Sequence record: OM870969.1 | DNA: 64,000 nt | Direction: 5' to 3' (one strand) | Source: Pseudomonas phage vB_Paer_PsCh | Part shown: one piece after another, positions 3,454 through 31,494 of the stretch | How the letters are laid out: the number at the start of each line of letters is the position of its first letter | Position numbering within the stretch: position 1 is the stretch's first letter | Notes under the pieces: model-generated | What the model was told of the DNA's origin: nothing | The model's input: the letters and a program-made list of their open reading frames with translations, nothing else | The model's database searches: none | Position numbers and translations under genes: made by a program

Positions 3454-4367
3454 CCGTAAAAGCAAAACGTAAACTGACCGATATCAAGTTTGAACACGAA
3501 GGTGCTCACGTCGCTCTGGTCAGTAAGCTTCAAGGTGGTGCAGCCAACGGGCACACTACTCTTATCACAAAAGCTACCAATGGCGTAACTGAAGAGCTTA
3601 TCGATAAAGCTGCTGAAGTTACAGTCACAATGCAGTTCCCTGAGTTCCTTCGTAAGTTCTTCGGGATGTATTATGACGATGCCGAAGTTCTCTCTGTTGC
3701 CATGGGATATGGCAGAACGGAGTATCCAGAACTAGATCACAAAGACTGGATCGACCAGCGGGTCGAGTCTATGTCCATTCTTAAGTCGGTTTATAAATCT
3801 GCTGACCTGAATCAAGCTCTCTCCGAGCTTACCCCTGAGCAGACCCTTTCCCTTAAACAGGATCAGGAACTGCTTGAAAAGGCTCTGGAGGTAGTCTCCG
3901 AGCAATCCAATGAAAATCCATCCAAGGAGATTACCAACATGGAAACTATCCTGAAATCGGCCCACCTAGAAGCTCTAGCTGACGCTGTTGCAGTTGAAAA
4001 AGCTGCTGGTGTCGCTGCTGTTGCAGAAGTTCAGAAGCAACTAGACGCCGCTAATGTAGAGCTTACAGCTCTTCGTGAAATTGTCAAGGCTGCTGAGGCA
4101 GAGAAAACCGCTGCTATCACCAAAGCCCGTAAAGAGCAACTGGCTGAAGTCCTCCCGGCTGACCAAGTAGAAGATACTTTCAAGTCTCTGGAAGTTCTGG
4201 ACGATCAAGCTTTTGCACAAACAGTAGGAACGCTCCGCATTCTTAAAGCTGCTGCTGACCAAAATGACATGCTTGTCGAGAAAGGTGTATCGGGCGCTGG
4301 GGAAGAAGACGACTCTGTTGTCGCCGGTGTTGCCGCTATCCTGAAAGCTCGCCACGGCTCCAAGTAA
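3450..4367 (+). CDS. scaffolding protein
   Basis: 305 aa with an Ala/Glu/Lys/Leu-rich predicted coiled-coil C-terminal two thirds. Sits between portal and capsid genes. Confidence 0.55.
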   Translation: MTVKAKRKLTDIKFEHEGAHVALVSKLQGGAANGHTTLITKATNGVTEELIDKAAEVTVTMQFPEFLRKFFGMYYDDAEVLSVAMGYGRTEYPELDHKDWIDQRVESMSILKSVYKSADLNQALSELTPEQTLSLKQDQELLEKALEVVSEQSNENPSKEITNMETILKSAHLEALADAVAVEKAAGVAAVAEVQKQLDAANVELTALREIVKAAEAEKTAAITKARKEQLAEVLPADQVEDTFKSLEVLDDQAFAQTVGTLRILKAAADQNDMLVEKGVSGAGEEDDSVVAGVAAILKARHGSK

Positions 4368-4394
4368 TATCTAGCCAATCTAGAGGAATTCCAA

Positions 4395-4805
4395 ATGGCT
4401 CAAAACATTATCGCAAAAGATCATCAGCGTCTTAGCAACTGGCTGAAAGAAGAACAAATGGGCCACCGTGGCCTGTTCTACACTCGCGAAACTCTGCCTG
4501 TCGCTGACATTGATGTTAAAACAACTGGTTCTGTCCTAGACAGCACTGGCAAGCTGGTAACTAAGGCTACTATCGCCGACGCTACCTACATCCTAATGAC
4601 CGACCTGCACGACTATGCCAACGCTCAGATGAGCCACGCTGTCGTCCTTGCTCGCGGTTTTGCCAAGATCGGCTCCAAGGCTGTTATCTTCGGTGCTGAC
4701 GTTGACGACGCTGATAAAGCTACCGTCTTTGAAGCTTTCAAAGCCAAGAACATCTTCGCCGTTGACCAGATCGAAGGCGCATTCGAGAACGTTACCTTCG
4801 CGTAA
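4395..4805 (+). CDS. head decoration-like protein (lambda gpD position analog)
   Basis: 136-aa ORF immediately upstream of the gpE-like major capsid gene, the same order as lambda D then E. Strong RBS GAGG. Confidence 0.35.
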   Translation: MAQNIIAKDHQRLSNWLKEEQMGHRGLFYTRETLPVADIDVKTTGSVLDSTGKLVTKATIADATYILMTDLHDYANAQMSHAVVLARGFAKIGSKAVIFGADVDDADKATVFEAFKAKNIFAVDQIEGAFENVTFA

Positions 4806-25089: not shown

Positions 25090-25127
25090 AGCCCCGGAAG
25101 CGAAAGCTTGCCGGGGCTCTTTGTTAT
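25090..25127. terminator. bidirectional rho-independent terminator between convergent operons
   Basis: AGCCCCGG-AAGCGAAAGCTT-GCCGGGGCT hairpin followed by CTTTGTT on the plus strand. Convergent genes end on both sides. Confidence 0.65.
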
Positions 25128-25133
25128 GGGTTT

Positions 25134-25442
25134 TCAGCGGACAACTTGATAAACTTCGCCGAACAACTCCTCAAGTTTCTGCATAACTTTTTTAGCCATC
25201 TTCTTGCGGAGTTTATTAGACTCTGCGGAGGAATGGAGTAGCTTAATGTCTATGGCGTCGCCCCAGTCTATATTCCCGTCCCCGAACAAAACTTTAACAT
25301 TCAGACACGTCACGCCCGAGTCAATATCGACAACTACGCCGGGCATCCGAGCGTTGGTCTTTTCGAATGTCGCTCTCGGAGGGTCTATGTCCAGATTACC
25401 AACCACGACAACCTGCCCTTTCTTAACGTCAGATAGTTCCAT
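25134..25442 (-). CDS. hypothetical protein
   Basis: 102-aa ORF, last gene of the leftward island. Confidence 0.45.
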   Translation of the reverse strand: MELSDVKKGQVVVVGNLDIDPPRATFEKTNARMPGVVVDIDSGVTCLNVKVLFGDGNIDWGDAIDIKLLHSSAESNKLRKKMAKKVMQKLEELFGEVYQVVR

Positions 25443-25452
25443 TAAAACCTCC

Positions 25453-25773
25453 TTAATCTAACCTCATTAGTGTGTTGAACTGATGCCTCAGAGACTTAAA
25501 AGCCTGCGGTCCGTCGTCTTCCGCTCCTTCATGAATGTGGTGAGCGATAAGGTGTATCAGTCCTCTGTCTCCCAGCAAAATAGAGCTAGGAATCTCTTTT
25601 ATCCAAGCTACAAAACAGCAGAAGTGCAATACCTCTGGCATAGAAGCCTTGAAGCTGGAATCGTCCAGCTTCGACAGGCGGTTATACGTGGCTTTGAGAT
25701 CGGGATAACTCAACTCATACGTTGCATAGTCGTCGATGTGCTCATCACCACTCACCATATATTGCAAGCTCAT
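25453..25773 (-). CDS. hypothetical protein
   Basis: 106 aa from the internal ATG (MSLQYMVSGDEH..) with RBS AAGGTG, placed just after the MazG stop. The longer ORF-track version (to 25827) would overlap the MazG gene. Confidence 0.4.
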   Translation of the reverse strand: MSLQYMVSGDEHIDDYATYELSYPDLKATYNRLSKLDDSSFKASMPEVLHFCCFVAWIKEIPSSILLGDRGLIHLIAHHIHEGAEDDGPQAFKSLRHQFNTLMRLD

Positions 25774-25774
25774 T

Positions 25775-26584
25775 CTACACCTTCTTGCCGCCTTCTGCAA
25801 GGCGAGCTTCCCGCTTGTGGTCTGCACGGGTCATGTTGTACTCGATCTTCTCGATCATAGCCCCTGCAACATCCAGACCCCGTACATTCGCATAGTCCAT
25901 GATGCGAATGATAGCGTCGGCCAGTTCCACCTCTTCCATCTTCCGCTCTGGCAAGTGATCGTCCATCAAATCCTTACGGACGCCTTCAGCAGCTTCCGCA
26001 ATTTCAGTGGTAACGAGCATCAGCATATGCAGAGCATCACGTTTAATCGGCTCGCCTGTGACCAGATCGGTGTTCCACTTGCGGTTAACAACCTCAAGAC
26101 CAGTCATCATTTTGTTAAAACCGCTAACAAACTCGAAGACGGACTCTCGTTCGAATAGTTCACCGAACGTCGGCTCTTGATCTTCAACAATTGCAGTACT
26201 GAAAGGCCACTCCATCCAAGCATCGTAGCACTTTTTGATAAGCTCTTGTTCATCAATGTACGAGAAGACACCCTGTTCCTCAAGCTGACTAATAGCTTCA
26301 GCCCCCTCGACCCAGACGCACGTACCAATAAGCCTTGGATCGATTCTCAGAGAAGTCTTGTAGACTTCTTTCCACGACCTCCATCCTACCCTACCATTGC
26401 CAAAATACACAAGGAGTGGCACATAGCCTTCTCGCTTTTCCTGCTCTGGCGTTTCTATAACTACAACAAACGCCGGAACTTTCTCCCCATCTGGACGTTC
26501 AGTTAGTACGAAGTCTCCCAAGTTGATATTCTCCCGACTAGCTGGGCGAAGAGATTCCTCGATATGGTCTTTAACTTTGCTCAT
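25775..26584 (-). CDS. mazG: MazG-like nucleoside triphosphate pyrophosphohydrolase (with N-terminal extra domain)
   Basis: Start taken at the internal ATG (MSKVKDH..) preceded by GAGGAGGAAG. C-terminal half has MazG helices (ALHMLMLVTTEIAEAAEGVRKD ... EEVELADAIIRIMDYA). Confidence 0.6.
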   Translation of the reverse strand: MSKVKDHIEESLRPASRENINLGDFVLTERPDGEKVPAFVVVIETPEQEKREGYVPLLVYFGNGRVGWRSWKEVYKTSLRIDPRLIGTCVWVEGAEAISQLEEQGVFSYIDEQELIKKCYDAWMEWPFSTAIVEDQEPTFGELFERESVFEFVSGFNKMMTGLEVVNRKWNTDLVTGEPIKRDALHMLMLVTTEIAEAAEGVRKDLMDDHLPERKMEEVELADAIIRIMDYANVRGLDVAGAMIEKIEYNMTRADHKREARLAEGGKKV

Positions 26585-26747
26585 TAACTTCTTCCTCCTC
26601 ACAGAACATTTCAAAATAACAATCACAGCATACCAGCATGCCGGCATCGCTTATAATTTCTTCGACCGGGAGAATGCTTCCACAGCATTCACACCCAGCC
26701 CGTTCAACACCGTCTACACAGACCCAAGAGTTCATCTTAACCCTCCT

Positions 26748-27884
26748 TCACTCCTCCTTCAGAAGATACTCGTTGCTAATAGCCTTGAAACTAAAGTCTC
26801 GGCTCATGCTTTTGAATACCAAACCTTCCCGGTACTTACCGTTCAACGCAGACTCGCCGCTAGCCATTTTAATCACAGACTCCATTTCAGCAGGGACTCC
26901 CACATTCCACAGGTAGACAGGGACGTGTTTAATTTTCACTCCTCCCTTGCTATTTAGAGTATTCAAAGTTGCAAGTCGCTCTTCTGGAAGATAATAACGA
27001 CTCTCCGAAATGTTGTAGATATCGTACACAAAGTATTCCGGTTTGTCAACTCCCTCGAAGTTGCCTTGGATATTCGGTGCAACCAGTTCACCTTGAAGGG
27101 CGATATTCAGACCAAACTCCCGGAGACGCTTACCAAGATCAAGCTCTTCAGCCATAGCAGTGAAGTGATTGGAGTCCTTCTTAATCACACGCTTCCAGCC
27201 GTGACCCTTGAAAAAGTTCTTGACCGCAGTGAAGAAGCCGATCTTCTCGTCCTCAAGACGGAAACCTACGTTACGAGAGGCTACACCGGTATCGCCGTCT
27301 TTATGCCAGATGGTGAGAGACGATCCGTCCAGTTTGAAGGTCACTTCGAACTTCTCACCTTTCGTGTAGGCATTCTCGTAGGCCATTTTGATATTCTGTA
27401 CGCGGGCCTGATCCGTTTTCGGGATGAAGTTGGGGAACCCTAGCTTGGAAGTGCCAGTTCGGTCGCCCTTGTTGCCGCCATTGATAGCTGCCTGCTCGGA
27501 CGGCTTTACATACTTCAGGATGCCCATCCGGTCGGTAACGTCTTCGTCTACTTTCGGTTCTGGACTACCGGCTGCATGAACAGGCACGATCAATCCTTGG
27601 CTAAGCTCTTTACGAAGCTTCATGGTCTTGATTCGAGAATACTCTTTTCCACCTTGTTCGACCATATTACGGCCACGCAGGAATTCAAAAATAGGGTTGT
27701 CTACAGGGACCATGGAGTCCACTTCAATGTAGATTGCCAGATCACCGGCCTGATACTCCCCTCGTTTGATTACGCACTGCCAACCACCAACAAGCGCCAG
27801 ATCGAGGCTGTCAGCGTTAGGATGGGTCTTCACATCATCGATACGAACTACTCGGGCAAGTACGCGGTCTTGGGAATTACTCAT
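26748..27884 (-). CDS. ATP-dependent RNA ligase, DraRnl/Rnl5-like (N-terminal OB fold plus nucleotidyltransferase)
   Basis: 378 aa. Adenylyltransferase motif I KLDGSS (VTFKLDGSSLTIWHKD) and a motif V-like EGLVFK. OB-like N-terminus (VVRIDDVKTHPNADSLDLALVGGWQCVIKRGEY), i.e. the DRB0094-type domain order. Confidence 0.5.
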   Translation of the reverse strand: MSNSQDRVLARVVRIDDVKTHPNADSLDLALVGGWQCVIKRGEYQAGDLAIYIEVDSMVPVDNPIFEFLRGRNMVEQGGKEYSRIKTMKLRKELSQGLIVPVHAAGSPEPKVDEDVTDRMGILKYVKPSEQAAINGGNKGDRTGTSKLGFPNFIPKTDQARVQNIKMAYENAYTKGEKFEVTFKLDGSSLTIWHKDGDTGVASRNVGFRLEDEKIGFFTAVKNFFKGHGWKRVIKKDSNHFTAMAEELDLGKRLREFGLNIALQGELVAPNIQGNFEGVDKPEYFVYDIYNISESRYYLPEERLATLNTLNSKGGVKIKHVPVYLWNVGVPAEMESVIKMASGESALNGKYREGLVFKSMSRDFSFKAISNEYLLKEE

Positions 27885-27915
27885 ATGTTATCCTCCTTGT
27901 TTGAAAATTGGTATA

Positions 27916-28149
27916 TTACTTGTTAAACCAGCCGAGGTCAATAGCTCGCTCTAAGGCCAGTAGCAGATTTTCAGCATCTAGAAGGTCACGGATCGCGATC
28001 CAACTGCCGCTGTCTCCCGGTAGACCATCTGTGATATATACAGGTATGTCGCTGTACTCGCTCTTTTTAAGCCCGCAGGCACAGGCTACATTGTCTCCGA
28101 AGACAATCTCGCTGACTTCCCTTGCCTCGTCTCGAATATCAATCTTCAT
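27916..28149 (-). CDS. hypothetical protein
   Basis: 77 aa from the internal ATG (MKIDIRDEAREV..) with RBS AGGAGA. First gene downstream of the leftward promoter. Confidence 0.4.
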   Translation of the reverse strand: MKIDIRDEAREVSEIVFGDNVACACGLKKSEYSDIPVYITDGLPGDSGSWIAIRDLLDAENLLLALERAIDLGWFNK

Positions 28150-28183
28150 TATGTTTTTCTCCTGTTGTGTTGAAAGTCGTTGT

Positions 28184-28212
28184 ATTCTGCATGGATTCAT
28201 CTGCTGTGTCAA
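28184..28212 (-). promoter_or_regulatory. sigma70-like promoter (leftward) for the MazG/RNA-ligase island
   Basis: Minus strand: TTGACA, 17-nt spacer, CAGAAT; located just upstream of the 28149 start. Confidence 0.45.
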
Positions 28213-28528
28213 TAGCCTTGACAAGAAAATAATCCGTGGTAAAGTGTGAGGCCTGCTGGAGAGAAATGTCCACGTCACTCACCGGCCAGCAGTATAGCGT
28301 ATGAAGAGGAAAGCTGCAAGCGCATCCTGAGTCGAATCTGAGAACAGGGCAGCGACGACCCGAAAGGGGAAAGCTCAGAGCCTATAAGGAGCCCATGCTC
28401 CCCGCTCACCGACTCATCTGCATAATGAGAGCGAGAGGCAGACCAGAGGCATGTCTTAGGCGGAAAATCCGTATGGCAAGCCTAGGGACAGGTCTGCCTC
28501 CACTACCGATCTATCTGCATACAAGAGC

Positions 28529-28557
28529 TTGACAGTATCCTGTAAACCGTTTAGAGT
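28529..28557 (+). promoter_or_regulatory. sigma70-like early promoter
   Basis: TTGACA (28529-34), 17-nt spacer, TAGAGT (28552-57). Sits 30 nt upstream of the first rightward early gene. Confidence 0.5.
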
Positions 28558-28588
28558 AATCTCAAATCAACCGCAGAGGAGTGTATAA

Positions 28589-28786
28589 ATGAAGCATGTT
28601 ATTCACCGTGAAGACCTTATCGACCTACTACGTGATCGTATGAAGCTTGAAGCTCTAGAAGCTGGCGGGGTGGACAACTGGGACTGGTATGAGGCCTCGC
28701 TAATCGACTGCGGATACTTCGATGACGATGGCCGGGAGCTAGAGGTCGAAGCTCTTGCAGATTGCTTCCCAACCGTAGGTGCGTGA
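28589..28786 (+). CDS. highly acidic small early protein
   Basis: 65 aa with about 17 Asp/Glu against 6 basic residues. RBS GAGGAG. First gene of the rightward early operon. Confidence 0.5.
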   Translation: MKHVIHREDLIDLLRDRMKLEALEAGGVDNWDWYEASLIDCGYFDDDGRELEVEALADCFPTVGA

Positions 28787-29274
28787 CCGTGGAGGAGTCG
28801 AAAGCTACCTTCAAAGACCCTTACCCTAGGTTCTTCGACGCTTCTCGTAGGTATGGCGAAACCAACGACTGCATGGTGGTGAGCTTTGCAGTCGTATGGA
28901 ACACCACCTATGAAAAGGCACACCAGCACCTGAAAGTGAAGTGCAAGCGCGGTTACCGGCAAGGGGCTACTCAGAAGCGCTTCAGCTACGCAGACACTTG
29001 GTGCCCTAAGACCCGGATGCTCTACCGGGAGGATGCTAAGGATAAGACTCTTAGGCAGTTTGCTGAGGAAAACCCTGAAGGTCGGTTCTGGATCGCGGTA
29101 AAGGGGCATGCTGTTGCAATCGTCGACGGAGTGTTGTACGATCACACTAATGACAAGAGACGTACCATCTGGCACTGCTGGCAAGTGTGGCCGGGGGAGG
29201 CACCTGAGAAAATCGAGAGGAAGCCTGATCCAATCTCACCTCCTGTGAGAAAGGCCCCGGACTGGTATGTCTAA
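28762..29274 (+). CDS. hypothetical protein with Cys...His pair (possible papain-like hydrolase)
   Basis: 170-aa ORF; start uncertain (ATG 28762 overlaps the upstream gene; alternative GTG 28786). Contains NDCMVVSFAVVW and GHAVAIVDGVLYDH. Confidence 0.4.
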   Translation: MLPNRRCVTVEESKATFKDPYPRFFDASRRYGETNDCMVVSFAVVWNTTYEKAHQHLKVKCKRGYRQGATQKRFSYADTWCPKTRMLYREDAKDKTLRQFAEENPEGRFWIAVKGHAVAIVDGVLYDHTNDKRRTIWHCWQVWPGEAPEKIERKPDPISPPVRKAPDWYV

Positions 29275-29307
29275 ACACAAACATCTGAAGTACAAAGAGG
29301 AGGATTT

Positions 29308-29562
29308 ATGGAAATTATTTCGAGAGGGACGCTCCCTCAAGAGGCTTTGTTTACTGCTAAGTGTCACCATTGCCTAAGCATTCTCCGAGCTAAGAGATCG
29401 GAACTTGAGTATGTTTCGTTCTCATTCTGTCGGCCCGGGGAGACTGGGTATTATTTCGCAGAGTGCCCTGTCTGTCACGAAGAGGTGTCTGCTTGGGTTG
29501 CGGCTCCTGTCATTCCTGTGGCACCGGCCACCACGGAGTATATCACAAAGGAGCGTAAATAA
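29308..29562 (+). CDS. zinc-ribbon protein
   Basis: 84 aa, RBS GAGGAGGA. CHHC..(35)..CPVCHE cysteine pairs. Confidence 0.5.
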   Translation: MEIISRGTLPQEALFTAKCHHCLSILRAKRSELEYVSFSFCRPGETGYYFAECPVCHEEVSAWVAAPVIPVAPATTEYITKERK

Positions 29563-29563
29563 T

Positions 29564-29953
29564 ATGGACCAGTTAGCAGGATTCATGGGCGAACCTTTCG
29601 TAATTGCGTTCGACTACGACGAGACGATCAGTCTATACCCTTTGGCCTTCCAAGTCGTCATGGATACCTTCAGGGGCTTTGGAGGCGCTTTCAATGTGAT
29701 CGTAGTCACTGCACGCCACCCTGACAACAGCGGAGAGTTAGAGTGGCTACGGGACTACGGGTTCCCGATCTATTTCACGGCACAGAAGGCAAAGCGACCA
29801 TTCATGGAAAATCTTGGAATAAAAGTCTCTGTATGGGTTGACGACAACCCGTTCAGCGTGGATAATGACCTTCCTCCGTGGACAGTAGAGCAATACGATG
29901 CCTACATGGAGGCAAAGAAGCAACGAGCTATCAACAGAGGGAGTAAAGCATGA
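29564..29953 (+). CDS. HAD-superfamily phosphatase (minimal DxDxT type)
   Basis: 129 aa from ATG 29564. Motif I FDYDET (DxDxT), motif II VVTAR, motif IV VWVDDNP. Confidence 0.5.
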   Translation: MDQLAGFMGEPFVIAFDYDETISLYPLAFQVVMDTFRGFGGAFNVIVVTARHPDNSGELEWLRDYGFPIYFTAQKAKRPFMENLGIKVSVWVDDNPFSVDNDLPPWTVEQYDAYMEAKKQRAINRGSKA

Positions 29954-30615
29954 GCGAGATTATGAAGGTTGAAGTGGGAGATCGGGTGGTCCTTAAGGCC
30001 TATTGCGATACATACACTGGATGTGCAAAGCGATGGGCGAAGGCGCATGGTCGTTTGGATGAACTGCTAGCTACGGGGTTTGTAGAAGACAGTTGGGTCC
30101 ACACCGACGAACTGGCCGGAGGCTTGAAAGGCACCGTTGTGATGACTGAACTGGGACTGAAGGAAGAGTGCTGTGCAGTACGTCTAGACGCCTACACTGA
30201 CCACAGGGCTGTTGTAGTTGTTGACGCTTCTGATCTTTACATCGCATGTAAGGCAGAAAAAGCTCCCGTAAGCACCCTAGACGAGGCCTTCGGTTGTGAC
30301 CACGACTACCTTATGGACTCTCCGGCTAACGCTCAGCGACTGAATGAGTCTGTCGAGCAGCTACGGACTGGTCAAGTCGTAGAAGTGGACGTGCCTATGA
30401 GTGTAAAGCAAGACGAAACTCCACCTGTCGTAGTGCATGTAGTAGAGAAGATTTACGATAGGAAAGGTAACGTACACCTCATTCTACAGTATGAGGTAGC
30501 AGGGGCGCTAATCAGGACGGTGGTTGAACAGGGAGAACTCATTTACTTCTTGGATGAAATGCAAGGTATGTACTTGACCAAGATTCAATTGGAGGTGAAC
30601 AATGGAGTTGTATGA
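29950..30615 (+). CDS. hypothetical protein
   Basis: 221-aa ORF with an ATGA overlap with the upstream gene. Confidence 0.5.
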   Translation: MSEIMKVEVGDRVVLKAYCDTYTGCAKRWAKAHGRLDELLATGFVEDSWVHTDELAGGLKGTVVMTELGLKEECCAVRLDAYTDHRAVVVVDASDLYIACKAEKAPVSTLDEAFGCDHDYLMDSPANAQRLNESVEQLRTGQVVEVDVPMSVKQDETPPVVVHVVEKIYDRKGNVHLILQYEVAGALIRTVVEQGELIYFLDEMQGMYLTKIQLEVNNGVV

Positions 30616-31071: not shown

Positions 31072-31494
31072 GTGGCTAGACAGACTTACGAGTCTGCATC
31101 AGATAGGGCGGTCGAGGAAGCCGTCCGTTCTGAGCTTGAAGGGCGGTGGAAGTGTTCTCTTCATAAGCTACCTAGAGCCCACTATATGGATTGGGCAGCC
31201 TGCCGGAATGGAAAGGTTGTTAGCTTTGTGGAGCTTAAGGCTCGGAATAATGAAATGCAGAAATATCCCGACTTCTTTGTGTCCCAGATGAAGTGGCTCC
31301 ATGGGATCGAAATGCAAAGGGTGTTTGACATTCCCGCATTCCTTGTGGTAAAGTGGACGGACTATACAGGATATGTCAAAATGACAGCCAATGGCGTCAA
31401 CTACATGAGCATGGGTGGCAGGATTGACCGTGGAGACTGGCAAGACCAAGAAGTTATGGTCCATATCCCGCTGAAAGACTTCACACGTTTATAG
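31072..31494 (+). CDS. putative PD-(D/E)xK-type nuclease (GTG start)
   Basis: 140 aa with a GTG start and RBS AAGGAGG. D..(15)..VELK arrangement and a YPDFFV segment reminiscent of T7 endonuclease I-like resolvases. Weak assignment. Confidence 0.3.
   Translation: MARQTYESASDRAVEEAVRSELEGRWKCSLHKLPRAHYMDWAACRNGKVVSFVELKARNNEMQKYPDFFVSQMKWLHGIEMQRVFDIPAFLVVKWTDYTGYVKMTANGVNYMSMGGRIDRGDWQDQEVMVHIPLKDFTRL

Follow-up and report, generated by a model that had tools for sequence, protein, structure and literature searches.

How should one read a short block of leftward genes set among rightward ones in the genome of Pseudomonas phage vB_Paer_PsCh (OM870969.1), in which an RNA ligase and a MazG-like pyrophosphatase are encoded close to a small phosphatase of the HAD type: as a single RNA-repair pathway directed against host defence, or as separate enzymes that share a neighbourhood? 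The block occupies positions 25134-28149 of the window, by which we mean the whole stretch of DNA that was analysed, 64 kb out of a genome of ~92 kb. The window belongs to a Pakpunavirus, a P. aeruginosa myophage of the PaP1/PAK_P2/PAK_P4 type. On the whole we consider it somewhat probable that the block is a six-gene leftward core operon with its own promoter and terminator, and that it contributes two separate enzymes of nucleic-acid metabolism rather than one pathway. The two enzymes are a ligase of 378 amino acids (aa), which is placed in the Rnl5 family, and the MazG-like protein of 269 aa. The phosphatase of 129 aa, termed mini-HAD in the following, lies across a divergent promoter region in a separate rightward unit.

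Listing of the open reading frames (ORFs) combined with inspection of ribosome-binding sites reveals six co-oriented genes in the leftward unit, tightly packed with gaps of -14 to +31 nt and each provided with an AGGAG-type ribosome-binding site 5-10 nt ahead of its ATG. The original prediction described five genes here; the packed string and its ribosome-binding sites are real, but a 54-aa ORF had been missed. This ORF sits between the ligase and MazG genes and overlaps the MazG start by 14 nt. Its product is kept at 61-88% identity in relatives and is annotated in Moonstruck and PAK_P4.

Both ends of the unit carry signals of their own. The hairpin at the left end has a folding free energy of -23.0 and -23.7 kcal/mol on the two strands (z = -3.5 and -4.7), and none of 200 shuffled sequences folds as well. 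The record of PAK_P4 carries an annotated terminator at the equivalent position. The hairpin is terminator-like, with a U-rich tail on each strand, and closes the rightward lysis genes as well as the leftward operon, as had been anticipated. At the right end, the TTGACA and CAGAAT hexamers proposed as promoter are present with the 17-nt spacing, but the site is a consensus match only: a scan of 5.4 kb returns 10 promoter-like sites of comparable quality versus 5.0 +/- 2.3 in shuffles. Pakpunavirus-type phages are known to rely on the host RNA polymerase (PMC5563952). Promoter-like sites for the rightward unit are observed at 28218-28245 (+) and 28529-28557 (+), back-to-back with the leftward one, which reads from 28212 to 28184.

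The distribution of the unit speaks to its status. Megablast of positions 25000-30100 matches 122 Pseudomonas phage records at 80-95% identity, with a query cover above 80% in 119 of them. The hosts of the matched records are P. aeruginosa throughout, and the closest records (Moonstruck, PAK_P2, PAK_P4, C11 and PaP1) all belong to the genus Pakpunavirus. The identity of the ligase protein to its relatives reaches 98.9% (PaP1). The composition of the unit is ordinary, with a guanine-plus-cytosine (GC) fraction of 0.482 versus 0.497 and 0.501 on its two sides. Kremar, a more distant phage of P. syringae, also has an Rnl5 unit in the equivalent slot, with lysis genes on one side and a divergent unit on the other. 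The Kremar unit has three genes only, without MazG, and its ligase is 48% identical; the divergent unit includes homologs of the HAD protein and of a 170-aa protein. Among the marks of an accessory island, the leftward unit displays a promoter-like site and a strong bidirectional hairpin of its own and an orientation opposite to both flanks, but neither variable presence nor atypical composition. Because of the near-full presence in the matched records, the unremarkable GC content and the filled slot in Kremar, the unit is assigned to the Pakpunavirus core genome, and the claim that it is an accessory insert is refuted.

At the level of sequence, the 378-aa protein is strongly confirmed as an intact ligase of the Rnl5 family (DraRnl/NgrRnl type). 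It aligns over its full length (residues 9-376) with the Naegleria gruberi RNA ligase NgrRnl (5COT; E-value 1.2e-59) and passes the TIGR02306 RNA_lig_DRB0094 equivalog model with 164 bits against a cut-off of 151.15 (E-value 4e-48). The OB domain covers residues 9-102 (PHA02142 OB domain PF21189; 1.9e-29). The nucleotidyltransferase domain extends over residues ~156-376, matches PF09414 at residues 178-369 (1.9e-17) and is without a C-terminal appendage. Motif I, KLDGSS, corresponds to residues 184-189, and motif IV/V is represented by EGLVFK (353-358) and FSFKAIS (364-370). The residues of NgrRnl in contact with ATP and both metals (PMC7261155) were mapped via the alignment, and every mapped catalytic residue has a counterpart in the phage protein. 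In the N-terminal domain, R7, D56 and K124 correspond to Arg4, Asp53 and Lys121 of NgrRnl, respectively; R7, two residues ahead of the start of the HMMER alignment, is placed by register. T157, D158 and R161 correspond to Thr145, Asp146 and Arg149; the nucleophile K184 together with D186 and R204 to Lys170, Asp172 and Arg190; and E266, Y288, E353 and K367 to Glu227, Phe248, Glu312 and Lys326. The Rnl5 assignment is regarded as correct because the match to NgrRnl is full length, the equivalog threshold is passed and the mapped residues are all kept; these results bear out the ligase type that had been predicted from KLDGSS, EGLVFK and the OB domain. A DNA ligase or a capping enzyme was considered and rejected, as no such family scores, the Rnl5 threshold is passed, and relatives have a separate ATP-dependent DNA ligase.

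The nicks sealed by Rnl5 enzymes are of the 3'-OH/5'-PO4 kind and lie in duplexes with RNA as the 3'-OH strand; on single-stranded RNA these enzymes are feeble (PMC4408790). The specificity is alike in Rnl5 and T4 Rnl2 (PMC4408790, PMC5397189). Loop repair is ascribed to the Rnl1 and Rnl4 families, and the phage homologs of Rnl5 were pointed out by the Shuman laboratory in 2015 (PMC4408790). The only genetics for an Rnl5 enzyme comes from DraRnl, whose knockout leads to ionising-radiation sensitivity, read as ribo-patch DNA repair; the same study left the DNA versus RNA repair role of T4 Rnl2 and NgrRnl undetermined (PMC5397189). On the model of this family biochemistry, the phage enzyme would self-adenylylate on Lys184 with ATP/Mn2+ and would seal duplex 3'-OH/5'-PO4 nicks with a ribonucleotide-ended 3'-OH strand, as a functional counterpart of T4 Rnl2. 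It would be the second RNA ligase of the phage, beside an Rnl1-type ligase encoded elsewhere. Its targets may be ribonucleotide-ended nicks in phage DNA undergoing replication or repair, or else breaks in RNA that is base-paired, and the two stand at about even chances; on context and expression, we lean slightly toward the ribo-nicks in phage DNA.

For the 269-aa protein, structure modelling confirms a predicted MazG fold with an intact acidic metal site. The C-terminal ~100 residues match PHROG pyrophosphatase families (E-values 7e-49 and 5e-13), and the C-terminal domain as a whole (residues ~140-269) is of the all-alpha NTP pyrophosphohydrolase type. An AF2 model based on 60 homologs has a predicted local distance difference test (pLDDT) score of 80-97 over residues 150-269. 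The best Foldseek match of the model is the Sulfolobus MazG 1VMG (probability 1.0, TM 0.76, root-mean-square deviation 2.8), followed by DCTPP1, E. coli MazG and YpjD. A profile search of the PDB finds phage MazZ (7ODY, E-value 0.0013) and, more weakly, DCTPP1/RS21-C6, which are enzymes acting on (deoxy)nucleoside triphosphates, (d)NTPs. Among the 60 homologs, the acidic residues E194, E197, E200, E220 and D223 are invariant and E218 is nearly so, in metal motifs of the ExxE...ExxD type. The protein has no match among the curated MazG models of Pfam or NCBIfam even at E <= 1. The predicted combination of a MazG-fold pyrophosphatase with an extra N-terminal region of ~140 aa is thus upheld by PHROG, AF2 and Foldseek. 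The enzyme would split off pyrophosphate from a (d)NTP or nucleotide analogue, leaving the monophosphate, and would thereby shape or clean the precursor pool.

The N-terminal region of ~135 aa has full-length homologs only in Pakpunavirus and phage EM, and is modelled at a pLDDT below 50. A likeness to Tudor domains was discarded as meaningless (Foldseek E-value ~2). We also note that the motif V-(L/Y)-FG-(D/N)-G-x-(I/V)-x-W is common to this region (26165-26584, minus strand) and to the 102-aa protein encoded at the end of the operon, with a pairwise E-value of 0.02. Kinship of the two, possibly as small beta-barrel modules, was tried and set aside, the match of 10 residues being too short to call.

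The 129-aa protein is confirmed as a HAD-type phosphatase at the motif level only, and it appears to belong to a separate, uncharacterised family. The motifs comprise D17-x-D19-x-T21 (I), T49 (II), K77 (III) and D93-D94 (IV), plus R51. An alignment of 84 members shows D17, D19, R51, K77 and D94 to be invariant, with T21, T49 and D93 nearly so (at least 90%). An exhaustive phmmer search collects 447 clusters at 50% identity, mostly of 90-130 aa; a few members reach 200-350 aa with unrecognised additional regions. The best PDB match of the family profile is 2OBB (BT0820-like, function unassigned; E-value 8e-5), an entry that we take to be classed as HAD-like. The class-B acid phosphatase AphA matches weakly (E-values 0.12-0.47), and no Pnkp chain is found among the PDB matches of the profile. 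Alignment with T4 Pnkp by hhalign gives a probability of 9% and involves motifs I-II only. Neither mini-HAD nor the 84 members match Pfam HAD models of any kind, be it Pnkp-phosphatase, SAK-HAD or nucleotidase. Single-sequence searches of Pfam, NCBIfam and the PDB with mini-HAD, and a Pfam scan of the longer fused homologs, returned nothing informative. The AF2 model, built from only 4 sequences, has a mean pLDDT of 49; the alternation of strands and helices and the match to 2OBB are consistent with a Rossmannoid fold. The gene is taken to start at the ATG at 29564, which is preceded by an AAGGAG site. Some GenBank records use a 180-aa version with a TTG start (29405-29953), which overlaps an 84-aa upstream gene; of the two starts, the ATG alone comes with a ribosome-binding site.

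The original prediction had cast this DxDxT protein as an RNA 3'-phosphatase. All four motifs are indeed present, but similarity to Pnkp models is lacking and no curated family takes up the protein. Membership of the Pnkp-type RNA-end phosphatases was rejected on account of the missing family-model match, the low hhalign probability and the lack of operonic linkage to a kinase or ligase. Membership of the deoxynucleoside monophosphate nucleotidases (NT5C type) was rejected as well, since there is no Pfam or NCBIfam match and AphA provides only weak profile matches in the PDB.

Do the three enzymes travel together in other phages? A tblastn search against annotated phages locates Rnl5 in 345 phage records, and five neighbourhoods beyond Kremar were inspected, those of CHA_P1 and phiPMW by tblastn and those of Aeromonas phage 25, phiN3 and PhiPA3 by annotation. 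Adjacent MazG or HAD genes are absent from all five. In CHA_P1, Rnl5 is located directly upstream of primase/helicase and DNA polymerase; in phiPMW, a helicase lies 2 kb away; and in Aeromonas phage 25, Rnl5 lies between rnh-gp59-gp32 and frd-td. The annotated neighbours in phiN3 and PhiPA3 include no replication genes. Proximity to genes of replication or nucleotide metabolism, in three of the five neighbourhoods, is the sole recurrent association of Rnl5, and a weak one. In the T4-like Aeromonas phage 25 the gene (locus 3501-4586) fills the gp32-frd slot, where T4 has frd.1-frd.3.

The MazG homologs of Kremar and phiPMW are ~23-26 kb away from Rnl5. Distant HAD homologs in PA5oct, pf16 and DSS3P8 adjoin structural genes, gp32, PhoH or a PD-(D/E)XK nuclease, and have no ligase or kinase among their neighbours. 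The HAD gene of the window belongs to a different transcription unit from Rnl5, and outside Pakpunavirus the two co-occur in the Kremar lineage only. Conserved linkage among Rnl5, MazG and HAD is therefore lacking, and MazG and Rnl5 are unlinked outside Pakpunavirus. The proposal that ligase, 3'-phosphatase and pyrophosphatase form a toolkit against RNA-targeting abortive infection is not supported, given that they are unlinked in other lineages and that the HAD protein has no likeness to Pnkp.

Published transcriptomes add a temporal dimension. In PAK_P3, the Rnl5 homolog gp044 has a log2 late/early ratio of +1.71, next to +1.79 for primase/helicase and +1.70 for DNA ligase, and it is unlike its early-class neighbour genes (PMC4933390 supplementary table S5). 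In PAK_P4, RNA-seq defined an early region, gp080-gp124, and a late region, gp001-gp034 (PMC5563952). The genes gp035-gp044, which correspond to the genes considered here, lie between these regions and in neither of them, a placing that rests on the region ranges in the text of that paper; they fall within a block of nucleic-acid metabolism. The leftward unit had been described as sitting between the lysis cassette and the early region. The left flank is indeed a muramidase-holin-spanin lysis cassette, but the rightward side is not early by the PAK_P4 data. We found no gene-essentiality data for Pakpunavirus in the literature.

The genes expected of an RNA-repair pathway are located elsewhere in related genomes. 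The original prediction saw no P-loop kinase nearby, and this holds for the 64-kb window, which was searched for an Rnl1-kinase pair and contains neither the pair nor any kinase; relatives, however, encode a Pnkp-like kinase beside Rnl1 outside the part equivalent to the window. In Moonstruck (95% identical; PV464116, 74-84 kb), a large leftward block of that outer part includes an Rnl1-type ligase (PF09511, 38 bits; BLASTP versus T4 Rnl1, E-value 3e-9) and, adjoining it, a P-loop protein (AAA_33) of 138 aa whose alignment with T4 Pnkp covers the kinase domain of the latter, residues 1-151 (E-value 5e-6). A calcineurin-like metallophosphoesterase (Metallophos_2) is encoded two genes beyond the kinase. 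The block also contains a macro-domain protein, NAMPT, PRPP synthetase and an ATP-dependent DNA ligase, as well as an annotated HD phosphohydrolase and a dCMP deaminase, and is followed by a cluster of 17 tRNA genes. The NAMPT and PRPP-synthetase-like genes have been described as NAD+ reconstitution pathway 1. The Rnl1-kinase pair occurs in 119 records, which are essentially those that carry the Rnl5 operon, and Rnl5 lies ~50 kb from this cluster in a different operon. Judged by its predicted functions, the cluster of Rnl1, kinase and metallophosphoesterase is a much closer analogue of T4 Pnkp/Rnl1 than the trio of ligase, HAD and MazG. If the phage heals and seals tRNA at all, the Rnl1-like ligase, the adjacent Pnkp-like kinase and the metallophosphoesterase known from close relatives would be the better candidates for the task.

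Several considerations count against the reading as two separate enzymes. A functional link confined to the genus could still lie behind the co-transcription of Rnl5 and MazG in ~120 genomes. Pakpunavirus and Kremar-like phages both have HAD and Rnl5 on the two sides of the divergent gap, although this may be inherited synteny, since the two lineages are related. In the sister Pakpunavirus Adele, the polynucleotide 5'-kinase is without a 3'-phosphatase domain (PMC12846349), so that a phosphatase acting in trans, for example HAD, could have a place. The Rnl1/kinase cluster of PsCh is deduced from relatives, with 92-95% nucleotide identity over the 5.1-kb region. Replication-gene neighbours and one RNA-seq profile, from a homolog of 33% identity in another genus, amount to guilt by association, which is weak.

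An RNA-repair pathway with dispersed genes, as published for Adele in 2025, is the alternative that survives best, and we rate it as possible though rather unlikely. The authors propose that the kinase and two RNA ligases restore cleaved tRNA (PMC12846349). In such a scheme, the kinase and the metallophosphoesterase or another phosphatase would heal the ends, Rnl1 would seal loops, Rnl5 would seal base-paired RNA, and MazG would be unrelated. The kinase, Rnl1 and the metallophosphoesterase are verified in the relatives, and the ~17 tRNA genes of Pakpunavirus-type phages would be in keeping with such a function. The pairing of Rnl1 with a nick-sealing ligase recurs, as in T4 (Rnl1 and Rnl2) and in Aeromonas phage 25, where rnlA is 2.3 kb from Rnl5; multiple RNA ligases in jumbo phages have been argued to be non-redundant (PMC7824862). 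The distance and the separate operon of Rnl5, the genetics of DraRnl, which indicates DNA repair, and the expression of the PAK_P3 homolog, which follows the replication genes, all point the other way. Moreover, Pakpunavirus-type phages are not known to counter any tRNA-nuclease defence, and deletion of host rtcB left the plating of PAK_P3 unchanged (PMC4933390).

The local counter-defence toolkit of the original prediction, in which mini-HAD would be the RNA 3'-phosphatase beside Rnl5, MazG would hydrolyse alarmones, and a cryptic or host kinase would give the 5'-phosphate, is doubtful. The intact active-site signatures of all three enzymes, their location within 5 kb around the divergent promoter region, and the joint presence of HAD and Rnl5 in Pakpunavirus and Kremar-like phages are what recommends it. 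The stand-alone kinase of the phage lacks a phosphatase domain (PMC12846349), and in jumbo phages ATP-dependent RNA ligases commonly have HAD phosphatases as partners for end healing (PMC7824862). Mini-HAD, however, lies in the other transcription unit, and neither the Pfam HAD models nor T4 Pnkp recognise it or its family as a kin; its distant homologs do not stand beside ligases or kinases. MazG is unlinked from Rnl5 in the sister lineages, and the solved structures closest to it are those of dNTPases. On single-stranded RNA Rnl5 is feeble, it falls outside the loop-repair class, the unit is core, and the relatives have the better-matched cluster of Rnl1, kinase and metallophosphoesterase.

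Equally doubtful is the possibility that the MazG-like protein is an anti-defence enzyme and Rnl5 a bystander. The protein would then act on an immune nucleotide, such as the 3'-deoxy-3',4'-didehydro nucleoside triphosphates (ddhNTPs) of viperin, alarmones or signalling nucleotides, with the N-terminus serving in targeting. The intact catalytic motifs and the genus-specific N-terminal fusion are compatible with this role, and MazG-domain homologs are widespread, occurring in 269 records that include unrelated and temperate phages. The idea has been raised for the ortholog of Adele, with alarmones, dNTPs or viperin products as its possible substrates; the same paper cites a cyanophage MazG that does not cleave (p)ppGpp (PMC12846349). 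Neither PADLOC nor anti-defence families match the protein, the solved structures nearest to it belong to (d)NTP enzymes, and the N-terminal region, modelled at low confidence, offers no structural clue.

Finally, it is improbable that mini-HAD, for all its lack of Pnkp likeness, is the trans-acting 3'-phosphatase of the phosphatase-less kinase in a split, genome-dispersed pathway in which Rnl5 seals base-paired RNA breaks beyond the reach of Rnl1; were it so, the operon and its neighbour would be a counter-defence against RNA-nicking immune nucleases, and the mini-HAD family of 447 clusters would gain its first function.

The coordinates of the operon, its signals and the HAD gene are summarized in Table 1.

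Table 1. Features of the leftward operon and its surroundings in the window of vB_Paer_PsCh.
Feature	Position	Strand	Remarks
Bidirectional intrinsic-terminator-like hairpin	25090..25128 (stem 25090-25118)	both	12-bp GC-rich stem; U-rich tails on both strands
102-aa protein, last gene of the operon	25134..25442	-	phrog_2827; unknown function
106-aa protein	25453..25773	-	phrog_7083; 90-100% identity in relatives
MazG-like 269-aa protein	25775..26584	-	PHROG pyrophosphatase families; MazG fold by AF2 and Foldseek
54-aa Cys-rich small protein, zinc-ribbon-like (CxCC...CCxC)	26571..26735	-	GGAGG ribosome-binding site; phrog_7461, E-value 8e-31
Rnl5 RNA ligase, 378 aa	26748..27884	-	NgrRnl 5COT, TIGR02306, PF21189, PF09414
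77-aa protein, first gene of the operon	27916..28149	-	phrog_4794; 97-100% identity in 7 relatives
Sigma-70-like promoter match for the leftward operon (TTGACA-17-CAGAAT)	28184..28212 (28212->28184)	-	10/12 positions match the consensus
Divergent intergenic region, 440 bp	28150..28588		88-99% nucleotide identity in 7 relatives
Minimal cap-less HAD-like phosphatase, 129 aa	29564..29953	+	HAD motifs I-IV; separate rightward unit

Among the smaller genes of the operon, the last one stands out by its variability. The 102-aa protein has 52-100% aa identity in relatives whose neighbouring genes exceed 90%, and the values of only 52-87% in several relatives suggest rapid divergence or allele exchange at the 3' end of the operon. 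It has no Pfam, NCBIfam or PADLOC match, and a PADLOC scan of all operon proteins returned zero matches. For the 106-aa gene, the ATG with a ribosome-binding site is favoured as start over an upstream GTG. The 440-bp intergenic region is more conserved in the 7 relatives than several of the flanking coding genes. Small ORFs are annotated within it in some records, and their length is not conserved. As for structured RNA, the region contains no tRNA and no Rfam family, and its RNA fold has z = -1.2.

Some genes of the rightward unit deserve mention. Its first gene (28589-28786, plus strand) encodes a 65-aa homolog of the T7 gp5.9 RecBCD inhibitor (PF25708, E-value 1.2e-13), a recognisable anti-defence gene adjoining the leftward operon. 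A 221-aa protein (29950-30615, plus strand), whose gene overlaps the HAD stop codon, is labelled YoeB-like or Phd/YefM antitoxin-like in databases and has no Pfam match. It is 96-97% identical in most relatives and 38% identical in a MAG1-like genome (locus L008 3339-3923), which looks like allele replacement. The gene at 31072-31494 (plus strand) encodes a 140-aa protein with a full-length match to PDDEXK_14 endonucleases (E-value 2.7e-69) and is annotated as hypothetical in the relatives.

The content of the region is already known: it is annotated in dozens of GenBank Pakpunavirus records, with labels such as RNA ligase, (putative) pyrophosphatase and HAD-like domain protein, and repair by two ligases and a kinase has been published for the sister phage. 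The discovery value is therefore small. What remains is the value as a test bed for nick-sealing RNA ligases such as T4 Rnl2 and Rnl5, whose role in infection is a long-standing question. Pakpunaviruses are therapeutic phages with published transcriptomes and have in a single genome both Rnl5 and Rnl1 together with a stand-alone kinase and an ATP-dependent DNA ligase, a set that could allow RNA-repair roles to be told from DNA-repair roles. The mini-HAD family, which has no curated model, represents a small annotation gap.

Comparison with known systems places each enzyme. T4 uses Pnkp and Rnl1 to heal and seal tRNA against the anticodon nucleases PrrC and RloC, and the relatives of PsCh likewise have an Rnl1-type ligase, an adjacent Pnkp-like kinase and many tRNA genes. 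Unlike T4 Pnkp, their kinase is not fused to a HAD phosphatase domain; the ligase of the window is Rnl5 rather than Rnl1, and mini-HAD is without specific similarity to the Pnkp phosphatase. Mini-HAD shares the four motifs and a size of ~90-140 aa with BT0820-like small HADs (2OBB) and other cap-less HADs; its family is outside every Pfam family. The MazG-like protein has the four-helix fold and the acidic metal motifs in common with MazG 1VMG, MazZ 7ODY and DCTPP1/RS21-C6, and differs from known MazGs in lying beyond the Pfam and NCBIfam models and in its additional, Pakpunavirus-like N-terminal region of ~135 aa. T4 Rnl2 (rnlB) shares with the phage Rnl5 the expected class of substrates, i.e., nicks of the 3'-OH/5'-PO4 type in duplex RNA or RNA:DNA whose 3'-OH strand is RNA, and is likewise a second ligase beside an Rnl1-type enzyme. 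The Rnl2 family nevertheless has a domain at the C-terminus in place of the OB domain at the N-terminus, and only the nucleotidyltransferase core (PF09414) is shared in sequence. The closest likeness is to NgrRnl and DraRnl, with which the phage ligase has the same order of an N-terminal OB domain followed by the nucleotidyltransferase and no C-terminal appendage. It is ~38 residues longer than NgrRnl, with insertions around 130-145 and 210-253, and has a Tyr in place of Phe248. Relative to the known Rnl5 enzymes, the phage context and the co-transcription with a MazG-like gene are peculiar to Pakpunavirus.

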